DNA from: a virus
Length of the DNA stretch: 64,000 nt
Reading direction: 5' to 3' (one strand)
Virus record (IMG/VR): IMGVR_UViG_3300025834_000005
The position numbers and the translations under genes were made by a program. Positions 1,758 through 23,354 of the stretch are shown piece after piece. Below the pieces are notes generated by a model that was not told the DNA's origin, ran no database searches, and worked only from the letters and a program-made list of their open reading frames with translations. Positions within the stretch are counted from its first letter, which is position 1, and each line of letters starts with the position of its first letter.

Positions 1758-1801
1758 TTAAAAACAGGATGCAACAATGTTCGTAAATAGTTCGGTATTG
1801 T

Positions 1802-1831
1802 TGTAACCTTTTACAATCATTCACGTATAAC
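1802..1831 (+). promoter_or_regulatory. ECF-sigma-type promoter (TGTAAC-N16-CGTATAAC repeat)
   Basis: Exact N16; next ATG 1846. Confidence 0.65.
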
Positions 1832-1845
1832 TAATAAATAGCACA

Positions 1846-1980
1846 ATGTTCAATATGGAATTATTCCGAGGTGGCGAAATTACTCAAATTGGTATGATAG
1901 TTTTCTTAATAGGTTTTGTTTTGATCTGTATAACAGCTGAGCGAATTACATACTTTATTAAGAAGCGAAAAAAGAAGTAG
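1846..1980 (+). CDS. small single-pass membrane protein (44 aa)
   Basis: Own translation MFNMELFRGGEITQIGMIVFLIGFVLICITAERITYFIKKRKKK; follows promoter 1802. Confidence 0.45.
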   Translation: MFNMELFRGGEITQIGMIVFLIGFVLICITAERITYFIKKRKKK

Positions 1981-2031
1981 CACAATGTTCGTTTTTAATT
2001 AAAACCAATGTACACAATGTTCGTTTTTTTT

Positions 2032-2061
2032 TGTAACCTTTATTTTTGATTTACGTATAAC
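2032..2061 (+). promoter_or_regulatory. ECF-sigma-type promoter (TGTAAC-N16-CGTATAAC repeat)
   Basis: Exact N16; next ATG 2079. Confidence 0.7.
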
Positions 2062-2078
2062 ATAGAAACAATCTTATT

Positions 2079-2339
2079 ATGGCACAGACACTGAACAAAA
2101 TCGCATCACGCCCATTGCACACAATCGCAAAGGAAATTAAATCGAATTGGTCAAAGGTTTACTTTGGTGCAGTCCCTTATCTTGAAGCAATGGGAACGCT
2201 ATCAACAATTGATCAGGATTATTATCAGGACAGCGCAAAGAGCATTGTACTATATTTCCTTAGCAACGCATCAACATGGCGTGGCGAAGTTGCTAAACGT
2301 ATCAAAACCGAGCTTAAAGCAATGTGCGGAATTAAGTAA
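2079..2339 (+). CDS. hypothetical protein (86 aa)
   Basis: ORF track; ATG just downstream of promoter 2032. Confidence 0.7.
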   Translation: MAQTLNKIASRPLHTIAKEIKSNWSKVYFGAVPYLEAMGTLSTIDQDYYQDSAKSIVLYFLSNASTWRGEVAKRIKTELKAMCGIK

Positions 2340-2365
2340 CATAAGCAAAACCAATGTACACTATC

Positions 2366-2590
2366 ATGGAAAAGAAATTTATCTGGTGTTTATTTAGCAT
2401 TGCCAATGAATATAATCAACCCAATTATAATTTAGAATGTTTCTGGTTTACCAAACCCGACGCTTTTAAATTAAAAACAGTGTGCCAATGTACAGAAGAA
2501 GAGGCAATGATATTGTTCGATCATACCCTGAGAGTTGATCAGGTTCATTACAGTCTTCAAGAGGTCGAAGAGGGTGTTATATTAAAATAG
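2366..2590 (+). CDS. hypothetical protein (74 aa), MEKKF paralog
   Basis: ORF track trimmed to MEKKFIWC, parallel to MEKKFAYC of 5289..5489. Confidence 0.6.
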   Translation: MEKKFIWCLFSIANEYNQPNYNLECFWFTKPDAFKLKTVCQCTEEEAMILFDHTLRVDQVHYSLQEVEEGVILK

Positions 2591-2608
2591 CACAATGTTC
2601 GATATCAC

Positions 2609-2638
2609 TGTAACCTTTTAAATCCAATTACGTATAAC
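2609..2638 (+). promoter_or_regulatory. ECF-sigma-type promoter (TGTAAC-N16-CGTATAAC repeat)
   Basis: Exact N16; next ATG 2660. Confidence 0.7.
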
Positions 2639-2659
2639 ATAGAAACAAATACATTTATC

Positions 2660-2872
2660 ATGAAAAATTTAAAATCGCTTTTAGTTTTAGTATTGTTAAT
2701 GTTCACTTTAACAATGTTCAGTTGTGCATCTTCGGGCAATGTACACAAGTCATCACGATCATACGTACACTCAAAAAAGGTACAGAAGAAAGCCGCTCAG
2801 ATCAGAAATGGCAGCCAATGGAAATGCAAACAAGCGAAGCATAAGACTTTACAACAGAAGCACCGCAGATAG
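2660..2872 (+). CDS. small basic lipoprotein (70 aa)
   Basis: Signal peptide MKNLKSLLVLVLLMFTLTMFSC with lipobox; promoter 2609. Confidence 0.65.
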   Translation: MKNLKSLLVLVLLMFTLTMFSCASSGNVHKSSRSYVHSKKVQKKAAQIRNGSQWKCKQAKHKTLQQKHRR

Positions 2873-2908
2873 TTTTTAATTAAAAACAGTAACCTTTTAT
2901 TACACTCA

Positions 2909-2937
2909 AACGAACATACACAATGTTCGTTTTTTTT
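2909..2937 (+). terminator. intrinsic terminator hairpin
   Basis: AACGAACAT / ATGTTCGTT stem, T-run, abuts promoter 2937. Confidence 0.65.
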
Positions 2938-2966
2938 GTAACCTTTATTTTCCATTTACGTATAAC
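2937..2966 (+). promoter_or_regulatory. ECF-sigma-type promoter (TGTAAC-N16-CGTATAAC repeat)
   Basis: Exact N16; next ATG 2982. Confidence 0.7.
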
Positions 2967-21090: not shown

Positions 21091-21108
21091 CTTTTAATTA
21101 AAAACCAT

Positions 21109-21426
21109 ATGGAAATTTCTTACAGATCAAAATCGAATGAATACGGCATTGGTATTCAGATCAACTACCAGCCAGAAGAGGTTGACACATTGTCCCTTTT
21201 AATTAACGAGCTTGAAGCTAATAACTTCAAGAAACGTTTATCTGGAATCCCAGACAGAGTTAAACAGAAATCACGCAAGGTATTCTTTTATCGTACAGGT
21301 AGCAGACCTTTTGGTATATTCACTGGCGACGAGGTTGTATTCTTTGTTAACGAGTCTGAAAAGATTCTTAAACGTTACGATAAGAACTTTAACCTTAAAA
21401 CATTGTTACCATACGATAACGACTAA
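21109..21426 (+). CDS. hypothetical protein (105 aa)
   Basis: ORF track; palindrome junction. Confidence 0.7.
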   Translation: MEISYRSKSNEYGIGIQINYQPEEVDTLSLLINELEANNFKKRLSGIPDRVKQKSRKVFFYRTGSRPFGIFTGDEVVFFVNESEKILKRYDKNFNLKTLLPYDND

Positions 21427-21430
21427 TCAT

Positions 21431-21460
21431 TGTAACCTTTTTTATCATTGTACGTATAAC
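21431..21460 (+). promoter_or_regulatory. ECF-sigma-type promoter (TGTAAC-N16-CGTATAAC repeat)
   Basis: Exact N16; CATTGTAC overlaps -10; next ATG 21487. Confidence 0.65.
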
Positions 21461-21486
21461 ATAGAAACATTCTAAATAAGATATTT

Positions 21487-22035
21487 ATGACAGCACCAAA
21501 AGTTGAATTGAAAAACATTAAATTCCATGAAGGCATGGAGGGTCAAGGCTTTAATGCAGACCTATGGATTAACGGCGTTAACTGCATGCATGTGAGGGAC
21601 AGCGGCGACGGCGGAGAACTGGACAGCCGTGACAATATCTATAAGAATCCTAAAGCTGACATTGTCCGTGAGAATATCAAACAGCTGAATGTACATATTG
21701 CCAGCCTACCTGATTACGTCTACCCAGCGAGAGACGGACAAAGAGAATTGAGAATCAAAATTGATCTGGCTATCTTTGTCGAAGAGCTTTTAAATAAGAT
21801 GGCTAAAGAAAAAGAAGCTAAAAAGATTGCTAAGCTTCAACTGGATAATATTCTCTGGGGACAGCCAAATGGTTCGAGCTATATGAAAATGAAGCTTGTT
21901 GCACCAATCAAAGATACACCTGCTGATATGCTTAGTAAGACGGTTGCCCACATCAGGGCTATATACTTCAAAACTGGTGACGTCTTTCTGAATACCAACT
22001 TCGCTGAATTCCAATCGCCATCTACTCTTAATTAA
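21487..22035 (+). CDS. hypothetical protein (182 aa)
   Basis: ORF track; promoter 21431. Confidence 0.75.
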   Translation: MTAPKVELKNIKFHEGMEGQGFNADLWINGVNCMHVRDSGDGGELDSRDNIYKNPKADIVRENIKQLNVHIASLPDYVYPARDGQRELRIKIDLAIFVEELLNKMAKEKEAKKIAKLQLDNILWGQPNGSSYMKMKLVAPIKDTPADMLSKTVAHIRAIYFKTGDVFLNTNFAEFQSPSTLN

Positions 22036-22042
22036 AAACCAT

Positions 22043-22294
22043 ATGACTCATTTTTACGATATCAAGGTTCTGAGAAAAATCTTTTATGATCTTGTAGCTA
22101 AAGGTAACTACACTACAGACATAGCAAAAAGCATTGGGTGCACACCGCCGACTCTCACCAAGGTATTGAATAACCAATCGATCTTAAGAGCAAGCTGCTG
22201 TGAGCTTTTAATTAAAAACTATAATGTGAATCCTGATTATCTCTACAGAGGTATCGAACCAATGTACATCGAAACAATTGAACCAGTAAAATAA
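22043..22294 (+). CDS. putative helix-turn-helix DNA-binding protein (83 aa)
   Basis: TDIAKSIGCTPPTLTKVLNNQ reads as an HTH; palindrome junction. Confidence 0.45.
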   Translation: MTHFYDIKVLRKIFYDLVAKGNYTTDIAKSIGCTPPTLTKVLNNQSILRASCCELLIKNYNVNPDYLYRGIEPMYIETIEPVK

Positions 22295-22300
22295 ATTAGC

Positions 22301-22603
22301 ATGGCAACAGAAGAAGTATATAATATCACCAAGGAAGAATTACAAGACCTTATGGCTGGCTTACAAGCAGTACAAGATAATGACTTTGCAATACAAGCCG
22401 TTGTATCAGGGTCTGCCTCTCAGATTACCCAAGGGTTTGTTATTGGGAGACAAACAGATGAAATGGACGAGACCATCCTTACCATGAGTAAGACGTTAAG
22501 CAATGTACGGAACAGAGGCTATAGGGTTGAGACAGTTAAACCAAAACCCAAAGGTAAAACCCTTCATGAGGTTTTGGGCTTAAAGGATGCAGCTAAGAAA
22601 TAA
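22301..22603 (+). CDS. hypothetical protein (100 aa)
   Basis: ORF track; followed by bidirectional terminator. Confidence 0.7.
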   Translation: MATEEVYNITKEELQDLMAGLQAVQDNDFAIQAVVSGSASQITQGFVIGRQTDEMDETILTMSKTLSNVRNRGYRVETVKPKPKGKTLHEVLGLKDAAKK

Positions 22604-22631
22604 GATTGAAAGGCACACCTCCTTTTAATTA

Positions 22632-22670
22632 AAAACCCTGAAAGCAATTAAGCTTTCAGGGTTTTCTTTT
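22632..22670. terminator. bidirectional terminator between convergent genes
   Basis: AAAACCCTGAAAGC / GCTTTCAGGGTTTT flanked by A-run and T-run; separates 22301..22603(+) and HAD(-). Confidence 0.8.
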
Positions 22671-22714
22671 TATATTAAACGGAATTATATATGGAGGTTG
22701 TTTCTAATTAAAAA

Positions 22715-23284
22715 TCAATTAACCCATACGAGCTTATCGATCTCTTCGTTGATGATCTTCTTAATATTGATTTGGTTTTCTAATAAATTAACACTACCTT
22801 TGTCGGCTCTGTATATGTTAAACACAATGTCCTCTGGCATATGCTTCTTAATTAAAAAGTATGCCTCAATGTCTTTACCCCTATCATCATATACATCAAT
22901 AGCTTTTATGTTCCTCTCCCATCTAAGGAAATCATAAATCCTTTCACCCTTGTCAACATTATGATCATTCATAAAGATACCATCAACCTCAATGCCATTC
23001 TTATTTAAAACCTTTATAAGATCAGGTCTCAATGCTTCAATCCTACTGGTTAATATAATAACCATTGTATTAGGATTAGCACCTTCTTTGGCTAATATGT
23101 TAGCTATATCATTGTACGGTTTAATATCAAACACATCAATGTCCAAGCTGGCTGGTGAACTCCACCAACCCTTATCAGGAAAATCTTTGCCAGTCCTTTC
23201 CTTATATAATACCATACCTTCCTCTGGTGATGGGGAATTCATAAGTGTTCCGTCAAAATCAAATGCTACCAATTTCGTTATCAT
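22715..23284 (-). CDS. HAD-superfamily phosphatase (189 aa)
   Basis: Motif I VAFDFDGTL, motif II ILTSR, motif IV VYDDRG; start trimmed to MITKLVAFDFDGTL. Confidence 0.75.
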   Translation of the reverse strand: MITKLVAFDFDGTLMNSPSPEEGMVLYKERTGKDFPDKGWWSSPASLDIDVFDIKPYNDIANILAKEGANPNTMVIILTSRIEALRPDLIKVLNKNGIEVDGIFMNDHNVDKGERIYDFLRWERNIKAIDVYDDRGKDIEAYFLIKKHMPEDIVFNIYRADKGSVNLLENQINIKKIINEEIDKLVWVN

Positions 23285-23323
23285 CAATGTACAGTTTAAT
23301 CTAAATACTATTTTAATTAAAAA

Positions 23324-23354
23324 CCATTGTACGACCATCTGTACCATTGTACGA
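23324..23354 (+). promoter_or_regulatory. direct repeat CCATTGTACGA x2 (operator-like) in HAD leader
   Basis: 23324-23334 and 23344-23354, between -7 box and HAD start. Confidence 0.4.

Follow-up and report, generated by a model that had tools for sequence, protein, structure and literature searches.

A strand-specific octamer beside sigma-factor genes in a large uncultured phage: a candidate transcription-control site

To our knowledge, the switching-off of early genes in giant lytic phages is poorly known outside T4. The site cleaved there by the endoribonuclease RegB is GGAG. Operators of the T4 translational repressor RegA are A-rich and contain an AUG, as in the rIIB operator AAAAUUAUGUAC (PMC3014915). 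In Cluster A mycobacteriophages, a monomeric repressor binds an asymmetric site overlapping a promoter, and many co-oriented copies of the site stop elongation in one orientation; these stoperators of the L5 type lie in promoters and in intergenic DNA, follow the direction of transcription and fail when inverted (PMC9283540). The middle and late promoters of phage phiEco32 that depend on gp36 carry a single AATGTA element, at -14 to -9 and centred on -11.5 (PMC12276001). Here, we analysed an octamer, CAATGT(A/T)C, which recurs on one strand of a 64,000-nucleotide stretch of the IMG/VR virus record IMGVR_UViG_3300025834_000005 (the window, meaning this whole stretch) next to genes for extracytoplasmic function (ECF)-type sigma factors, and which is most likely a transcription-control site.

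We found 33 copies of the family CA[AT]TGT[AT]C on the plus strand of the window and 0 on the minus strand, all inside 1775-23352; with no reverse-complement copy in 64 kb, the site is asymmetric and has no dyad partner. Exact CAATGTWC accounts for 25 copies (25/25 on the plus strand, spanning 1775-23292), against a mean of 6.7 +/- 2.3 and a maximum of 13 in dinucleotide shuffles with both strands summed, and CATTGTAC for 8 (8/8 on the plus strand). Markov models of orders 1-3 trained on the octamer domain expect 0.45-0.96 copies per 8-mer, and 15 copies of CAATGTAC, 10 of CAATGTTC and 8 of CATTGTAC were observed; training on the rest of the window instead brings the expectation to <=0.43 per 8-mer. 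In an unbiased ranking of 8-mers, CAATGTAC came top for domain specificity, with 15 copies vs 0 in the rest of the window and the entire minus strand. The copies reach 1.5-3 per kb in clusters, and two patches of the window are dense, namely 1775-3508 (13 copies) and 19431-23352 (14 copies). A sequence-only reading of the window had confined the octamer to the first 23 kb of one strand, with less than one copy of a given 8-mer expected by chance. The counts (33:0, the last copy ending at 23352) and the Markov models bear this out, and the enrichment holds at orders 1-3 and is absorbed only in part at orders 4-5, which were trained on the octamer block itself and are circular in that they take up some of the motif signal. 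The observation is real and stronger than first described: every copy listed earlier is correct, and the list lacked 11600, 2243, 11710, 20577 and 23110, the last four of which bring CATTGTAC from the four correct copies then listed to eight. The copies, including the two set within promoters, are given below (nt, nucleotides; CDS, coding sequence; ORF, open reading frame).

1775..1782 (+), CAATGTTC: intergenic, after the palindrome at 1751 and 27 nt before the promoter at 1802, with AAAAAC-N16-CGT geometry
1844..1851 (+), CAATGTTC: in the leader of the promoter at 1802; its own ATG (1846) is in frame with ORF 1846/1855-1980
1983..1990 (+), CAATGTTC: 2 nt past the stop codon at 1980
2006..2013 (+), CAATGTAC: immediately 3' of the palindrome 1992-2004
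2015..2022 (+), CAATGTTC: followed by a T9 run, 17 nt before the promoter at 2032, with TAAAAC-N16-CGT geometry
2243..2250 (+), CATTGTAC: within CDS 2079-2339
2352..2359 (+), CAATGTAC: intergenic, 12 nt past the stop at 2339; its own ATG (2354) is in frame with the ATG at 2366
2486..2493 (+), CAATGTAC: within ORF 2354-2590, out of frame
2593..2600 (+), CAATGTTC: 2 nt past the stop at 2590 and 16 nt before the promoter at 2609
2712..2719 (+), CAATGTTC: within CDS 2660-2872
2737..2744 (+), CAATGTAC: within CDS 2660-2872
2921..2928 (+), CAATGTTC: right arm of a terminator-like hairpin (2908-2932, then T8), 16 nt before the promoter at 2937, with TCAAAC-N16-CGT geometry
3501..3508 (+), CAATGTTC: left arm of a hairpin (GGACAATG/CATTGTCC, then T7), after the palindrome at 3485 and 28 nt before the promoter at 3529
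8917..8924 (+), CAATGTAC: 1 nt past a terminator T-run
8943..8950 (+), CAATGTAC: after the palindrome at 8928, 50 nt before the promoter at 8993
11600..11607 (+), CAATGTAC: within CDS 11238-12197
11710..11717 (+), CATTGTAC: within CDS 11238-12197, after TTTTAATTAA
12796..12803 (+), CAATGTTC: within CDS 12563-12874
13496..13503 (+), CAATGTTC: across the start codon at 13498, 20 nt past the promoter 13447-13476
19431..19438 (+), CAATGTAC: within the GP88-family CDS 18809-19621
19606..19613 (+), CAATGTAC: within the GP88-family CDS, 8 nt before its stop
19675..19682 (+), CAATGTAC: 1 nt past the T-run of a long hairpin (19632-19673) and 36 nt before the ATG at 19711, in a spacer with no ECF-type promoter
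19907..19914 (+), CAATGTAC: after the palindrome at 19895; its own ATG is the start codon at 19909
20394..20401 (+), CAATGTAC: within CDS 20368-20724
20577..20584 (+), CATTGTAC: within CDS 20368-20724
20784..20813 (+), ECF-type promoter: CATTGTAC at 20799-20806 abuts the -10 element and is preceded by two looser copies, TAATGTAC (20722) and GATTGTAC (20769)
21431..21460 (+), ECF-type promoter: CATTGTAC at 21446-21453 abuts the -10 element
22260..22267 (+), CAATGTAC: within the HTH_3 CDS 22043-22294
22501..22508 (+), CAATGTAC: within CDS 22301-22603
23110..23117 (+), CATTGTAC: within the HAD/PNK-like gene of the minus strand, in antisense orientation
23285..23292 (+), CAATGTAC: in the divergent spacer, 2 nt away from 23283, where the minus-strand HAD gene probably starts
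23325..23332 (+), CATTGTAC: in the divergent spacer, after the palindrome at 23311
23345..23352 (+), CATTGTAC: in the divergent spacer, the final copy of the window

Relatives were gathered by a composite-motif scan together with sigma-based searches, and three of them (G001, G002 and G003) are complete. Besides the window, a one-strand octamer cluster was found beside an ECF-type sigma gene in the following genomes and contigs, at least seven relatives in all, with G009 as a further, weak case.

G001, 327,676 bp: 47:16 (sense:other; backwards-read control 13:15), with a cluster of 30 copies (30:1) in one ~36-kb block starting just past the sigma gene
G002, 325,854 bp: ~11 copies at 183-200 kb, around the sigma gene at 188.8 kb
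G003, 362,763 bp: 41:9, dense at 269-280 kb, past the sigma gene at 268.3 kb
G007, a fragment: 23:1 (control 0:0), with 21 copies in the 19 kb past the sigma gene
G008: 13:2, with 9 copies at 35.6-50.2 kb, past the sigma gene at ~33 kb
G009: weak cluster
G010: 15 copies in 13 kb around the sigma gene
L157/L158, contigs: 21:7

The strand bias that had been described in the window therefore extends to the count over a complete genome, G001 (47 vs 16), where 30/47 copies sit in the one block and elsewhere ~16 occur per strand in 291 kb. The sigma factor is the sole protein family common to all four blocks compared (window, G001, G002 and G003); their other proteins are mostly unrelated, so that the word has been conserved among genes that have not.

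Two adjacent sigma paralogs are present in the window and in L157/L158 (sigma-1 6648-7172 and sigma-2 10001-10513 in L158). Those of the window are as follows.

929..1525 (+), sigma-1, an ECF-type sigma gene with an ATG at 971, immediately before the first cluster of octamers
4211..4753 (+), sigma-2, an ECF-type sigma gene by Pfam match

SigW is the best solved relative of each. Sigma-1 matches Pfam Sigma70_r2 and r4_2 and has an L158 ortholog at the equivalent position; sigma-2 is the ortholog of the relatives' single cluster-adjacent sigma (blastp, tblastn) and closes the cluster of TTC-type copies (CAATGTTC). Both match SigW and other ECF sigmas in the PDB, with no gp36 chain at E<=0.01. 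The form of the word varies with the number of sigma paralogs: in the two-sigma genomes (window and L158) a TTC-form cluster lies between the sigma genes and TAC forms lie further on, and the one-sigma genomes (G001, G003 and G007) have almost purely TAC. Moreover, each of the five promoters of the sigma-1/sigma-2 interval of the window (1802, 2032, 2609, 2937 and 3529) has a TTC copy 16-28 nt ahead of its TGTAAC, and almost none of the ~30 later promoters of the block does; three of these interval copies show xxAAAC-N16-CGT geometry. In L158, two promoter subtypes differ in exactly the octamer word.

Among further genomes with a sigma homolog, G004 and G005 have no octamer cluster. The promoter of G004 (L168+L169) reads TCCCTCTTTT-N12-GCTTTATATA, and an orphan word, TCTCCCCA, occurs there 10:0 and resembles that promoter's own upstream (-35) box; G005 (L170+L171) has a one-strand word, TATTGATA, 19:1 near its sigma gene and mostly in genes. 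Direct terminal repeats mark the ends of the G010 (L164) and G008 (L161) records as physical ones. In G010 the octamer cluster spans 6.5-20 kb from one such end; in G008 it occupies 35-50 kb.

Counts of one-mismatch variants define the real core of the word as nA(A/T)TGT(A/T)C. Both degenerate positions are A/T swaps, with no enrichment for G, C or other substitutions, and the first base is loose: G003 has C 10, G 9 and T 6, so the fixed initial C of the sequence-only reading did not survive. The CAATGTTC form is restricted to the window and the L158 lineage. Within 60 nt of the word, neither the 33 sites of the window nor 186 sites drawn from four genomes show any conserved position, and no partner motif recurs at a fixed distance among the 186. 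The word therefore stands alone, and a bipartite promoter was rejected.

About half of the copies lie outside predicted genes and spacers make up about a quarter of the DNA, a roughly two-fold spacer enrichment. All 33/33 window copies are co-oriented with the plus-strand gene block, some 14 of them in genes and one antisense to the sole minus-strand gene. The 55 in-gene copies of three genomes are spread evenly along genes and use all frames (29/16/10), as the earlier claim of frame independence had it. Given that all frames are used, that polarity is strict and that the word is kept in relatives with different genes, it is the nucleic acid, rather than the protein, that is under selection, which was also the earlier conclusion. 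Copies following the palindrome TTAATTAAAA were found again at 2006, 3501, 8943, 11710, 19907 and 23325, more loosely at 1775 and 2486, and copies do lie across the start codons at 13498 and 19909. After the A-rich palindrome, the ATG of the word falls where real start codons fall, 13-16 nt downstream; at most ~6/33 copies are at plausible real start codons. Reading the word as a mini-ORF or leader peptide (M-Y or M-F with an early stop) was rejected, as the ORFs of 3-13 codons are those that chance yields in AT-rich spacers, and coding leaves the strict use of TAC/TTC and the CA prefix unexplained. A palindrome, TTTTTAATTAAAAA, has 51 copies over the whole window (for example 5273-5286, 6291-6304, 12547-12560 and 21092-21104). 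At stop/start junctions it usually holds or follows the stop codon, 13-15 nt before the next ATG wherever there is no promoter in between. It resembles either a standard intercistronic junction or, for a host that does not use Shine-Dalgarno pairing, an A-rich site of ribosome loading.

About 66 promoters of the form TGTAAC-N16-CGTATAAC run along the whole window on the plus strand, sharing the geometry of SigW promoters (TGAAAC-N16-CGTA), and most of them are without the octamer. We found that in six genomes the octamer keeps a fixed register with such promoters, lying against their -10 element and over their start site. Its 7-mer starts 6 nt before CGTATA in 11 cases (three genomes), the final C of the word being the C of CGT, and at +8 to +11 relative to CGTATA in 8 cases (three genomes); for 8 cases in the window the start is at about -37 or -48. 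The embedded form in relatives reads TGTAAC-N9/10-CAATGTA-CGTATAA, with the word abutting the -10 element, or has the word directly after that element. Among the 8-mers that abut the -10 element, CAATGT[AT]C is the most frequent in G001, L158 and L160; seven to eight consecutive post-sigma promoters of L160/G007 read GTAACCTTTTC(A/T)GGT-CAATGTAC-GTATA, and L158 has four promoters with CAATGTTC-GTATAAT and three with CAATGTAC-GTATAAC. A tRNA gene of G001 starts 7 nt after CGTATAAC; transcription therefore starts inside the copies placed directly after the -10 element, and RNA from that promoter therefore cannot contain the whole word. Near promoters, 33 copies are upstream of or across the start site and 5 are in the leader.

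Orphan copies exceed embedded ones 3-20 fold, the embedded numbering 2 in the window and 27 across the other tabulated loci and the remainder being orphans. Only 45/250 copies have AAC at -35 spacing (an AAC box, a 16-17 nt spacer and CGT) and 82% are without it, so most copies do not belong to ECF (SigW-type) promoters; no -10-like sequence follows the orphan TAC copies. As for what these promoters serve, in G001 some drive tRNA genes directly (L006:17022-17097 and L005:10015-10087), with a tRNA-Arg 7 nt after CGTATAAC. In G003 (L134:15880-16450), a promoter with three octamers is followed by ~450 nt without ORFs, apparently a structured RNA, which has a tRNA-like T-arm and acceptor end and no ARAGORN or Rfam call.

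The window belongs to a large uncultured AT-rich phage. Its DNA was matched only in four glacier-metagenome runs, all of them DNA, with no RNA data set listed for it; its DNA ligase is closest to those of Cellulophaga phages (46% identity), and two of its stretches had no near-identical match in the phage GenBank collection. The octamer block begins right after sigma-1, contains sigma-2 and ends at the sole minus-strand island (HAD/PNK-like, 22715-23283/23347). Promoter leaders read CATAGAAACAAAC in the block (2032-21460) and are of AGAAAAT type beyond 24 kb (24042-61900), and ATAGAAAC has 25 copies in the block vs 3 elsewhere. Since this switch of leader coincides with the octamer block, the block is a distinct regulatory unit by a second, independent criterion. 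Beyond 24 kb, 32 ECF-type promoters and all genes are without the octamer. The HAD/PNK-like gene probably starts at the ATG at 23283 (MITKLVAFDFDGT, with a DxDGT motif near the N-terminus) rather than at 23347 (minus strand), which would make the octamers at 23285, 23325 and 23345 intergenic; the mRNA leader would bear three reverse-complement copies. A host-type box, TACCTTTG, precedes sigma-1 (window 905-929) and is itself directly preceded by TAATGTAT, one mismatch from the octamer; in G002, two host-type promoters read CATTGTACCTTTG, in which the word is fused to the box.

The strict co-orientation of the copies, those in genes included, requires a directional process, and the A/T degeneracy, the fixed registers at the -10 element and start site and the tie to sigma together indicate duplex DNA and transcription. 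The A/T degeneracy and the loose first base also fit a duplex read-out better than a single-strand RNA read-out. Among the three roles offered by the sequence-only reading, an operator-like DNA site in transcription is thus the favoured one, the A/T swaps and the fixed register in six genomes leaning that way. We tentatively propose that the octamer may be an orientation-dependent double-stranded DNA operator, similar to a stoperator, that controls the sigma-adjacent block. At some SigW-type promoters (TGTAAC-N16/17-CGTATAA), where the word fills the spacer against the -10 element or covers the start site, it would serve as an operator, and a sequence-specific protein distinct from sigma, bound as a monomer to the asymmetric site, would occlude those promoters. 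At the orphan copies, scattered in and between genes and all directed along transcription, the bound protein would stop or slow RNA polymerase arriving from one side. The earliest genes might in this way be timed or shut off, with the octamer-free promoter regulon past 23.4 kb staying active; the octamer, missing beyond the block, marks only part of the regulon, as would be expected of a shut-off signal.

Several observations weigh against this proposal. About half of the copies fall within genes, unlike the mostly intergenic stoperators of L5; at 8 bp, the site is shorter than the 13 bp of L5, and no sign of a temperate lifestyle was seen in the window. The five TTC copies 16-28 nt upstream of a -35 box are poorly placed for occlusion, and the split between TTC and TAC tracks the number of sigma paralogs, which would be simpler if sigma itself read the word. 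The helix-turn-helix proteins of the window (22043-22294 and 34810-34992, HTH_3), which had been put forward as readers, have no detectable homolog in octamer-bearing relatives, a comparison made with short proteins and with 64 kb of this genome. The only other recurrent cluster gene, of the GP88 family, looks from its predicted structure like an enzyme and not like a DNA binder.

That GP88-family protein (PF17338, window 18809-19621) has an invariant C-x6-C-x3-C, and its gene lies inside the octamer cluster in five genomes. Its model, with a predicted local distance difference test score (pLDDT) of 64, is alpha/beta with no significant fold match, the weak hits being TIM-barrel or radical-SAM-like. 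It makes an unlikely reader: although all five of the strongest clusters have it, so does the cluster-less G005, and G002, G008 and G009 lack it. The 86-aa protein at 2079-2339 (PHROG 13953, no Pfam match) is the most conserved in the block, 68% identical in G001, and is a very widespread small early protein; phage contigs of 31-68% G+C encode relatives that are 52-70% identical to it. It was rejected as a reader, since phages with neither the word nor the promoter, of 31-71% G+C, also have relatives of it. The LexA-like boxes of Bacteroidota, GGA-N5-TCC and CTAA-N5-TTAG (PMC8565304), bear no resemblance to the octamer.

Instead of a separate protein, the phage ECF sigma holoenzyme might read the word, as an extended -10 or a discriminator module governing promoter strength or the choice between paralogs. 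The orphans would then pause polymerase in a sigma-dependent way, act as decoys for sigma, or be weak promoters independent of a -35 box. We regard this as rather unlikely, even though it explains the co-variation with sigma better than a stoperator model does. Sigma is the only gene common to the four blocks and flanks every cluster, the TTC cluster lies between the paralogs where there are two and one-sigma genomes have mostly TAC, the two L158 promoter subtypes differ in precisely this word, and each interval promoter has its TTC copy, three of them in xxAAAC-N16-CGT geometry. Gene 19711 follows a strong hairpin with the octamer alone upstream, the orphan word of G004, a genome with another promoter type, resembles its own -35 box, and AATGTA is the core of the gp36 promoter (PMC12276001). 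The copies themselves do not behave like gp36-type promoters, however, half of them being in genes, evenly spread and at no fixed distance from start codons, and 1.5-3 per kb is too dense for promoters. The majority of the 66 promoters in the window function without it, the orphan TAC copies have nothing like a -10 element behind them, and both sigmas look like ordinary SigW-type ECF factors, which lack the region 3 that would make extended -10 contacts. We know of no demonstration of sigma-dependent pausing for ECF sigmas.

The word might also act in RNA, as the target of a phage or host endoribonuclease (the logic of RegB) or of a translational repressor (that of RegA), so that read-through early transcripts would be inactivated. 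A dense, frame-independent, strictly sense-strand word confined to the early block would suit such a role, and it contains AUG or UUG, coincides with the start codons at 13498 and 19909, and after the palindrome sits exactly at the position of real start codons, 13-16 nt downstream; T4 RegA operators are likewise A-rich with AUGUAC (rIIB, AAAAUUAUGUAC; PMC3014915). The excess of copies upstream of or across start sites (33, against 5 in leaders) would even let a promoter's own RNAs escape and expose read-through RNAs. Such a signal has no need of a strict -10 register, however, A/T degeneracy is atypical for single-strand read-out, and at most ~6/33 copies are at plausible real start codons. 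In G001-G003, neither RegA (PF01818; control genomes likewise without match) nor RegB (PF10715) gave a match over the cut-off, the predicted unpaired probability of the octamer equalled that of matched controls in three genomes, and the depletion from the sense strand of genes outside the G001 block is weak (29 vs 47 on the antisense strand). These results, and the start-site copies that cannot lie wholly in their own promoter's RNA, weaken the analogy to RegB drawn by the sequence-only reading, and we consider a role in RNA doubtful. Its remaining suggestion, a polar DNA motif, taken here as one outside transcription (for example Chi-like, or for packaging, injection, replication or strand-specific nicking), is highly improbable. 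An 8-mer that is strictly polar, clustered and frame-independent would fit, as would the cluster 6.5-20 kb from one physical end in G010. Against this, the word is built into promoters at a fixed register, follows the sigma gene wherever that is located (the cluster of G008, whose record likewise ends in terminal repeats, being at 35-50 kb) and is about two-fold enriched in spacers, and a Chi-like signal would not stay in one block, which is where the enrichment in G001 lies, with ~16 per strand in the other 291 kb rather than over-representation genome-wide.

The octamer is a conserved, testable cis-signal linked to a phage ECF sigma cascade in an uncultured clade of ~330-kb Bacteroidota phages, and a simple marker that delimits the earliest gene block in related metagenomic phage genomes. 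If it is a polar roadblock or operator, the logic of stoperators would extend from temperate mycobacteriophages to lytic jumbo phages; if it is read by sigma, it would be an extra specificity module for ECF sigmas, useful for orthogonal promoters, and possibly a case of ECF-sigma-dependent pausing. The promoter-like orphan word of G004 hints at a more general design. The octamer could then represent an undescribed class of polar cis-signals, spaced 150-700 bp through the first-expressed block of large lytic phages, in which each lineage takes its word from a part of its own promoter (-10-proximal here, the -35-like TCTCCCCA in G004) and a sigma holoenzyme or a new small protein reads it during elongation, timing early shut-off. 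In this full form we think the idea unlikely to hold; if true, such a class would be the lytic-phage counterpart of stoperators and a general principle. Precedents for the principle exist in stoperators, RegB sites and single-element phage promoters. Literature searches found nothing on AATGTAC as a phage motif, nor any account of arrays of such polar words in the early blocks of large lytic Bacteroidota phages.

Compared with known systems, embedded copies share the exact geometry of SigW/ECF promoters (TGAAAC-N16-CGTA) and the phage sigmas are SigW-like, whereas the word itself is an extra, non-canonical module upstream of CGT and 82% of copies have no -35 partner. With phiEco32 gp36, the system has in common the AATGTA core, a small sigma of the phage's own and an element able to stand alone; unlike gp36 sites, the octamer has no fixed gene distance, is frequent in genes and within promoters lies upstream of a separate CGTATAA box, and its sigmas are SigW-like by sequence, with no detectable similarity to gp36. 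Like the sites of T4 RegB and RegA, it is a short sense-strand early word, often at translation-initiation regions and sometimes coding, and it shares with RegA operators the AUGUAC hexamer and an upstream A-tract; it differs in its A/T degeneracy, in showing no accessibility bias, in its many copies in promoter spacers or across start sites, and in that no RegA or RegB gene was detected in relatives. Differences from L5 are that the octamer is confined to a 20-50 kb early block of a ~330-kb apparently lytic phage, at 1.5-3 per kb, and that its promoter is read by a phage ECF sigma and not, as in L5, by the host main sigma, with no gp71-like repressor found here. As in Cluster A mycobacteriophages (L5 gp71-type; PMC9283540), the site is asymmetric, present in tens of copies and found both in core promoter elements and dispersed, and its orientation tracks transcription (33:0 in the window, 23:1 in G007 and 30:1 in the G001 block), as that of L5 stoperators does.

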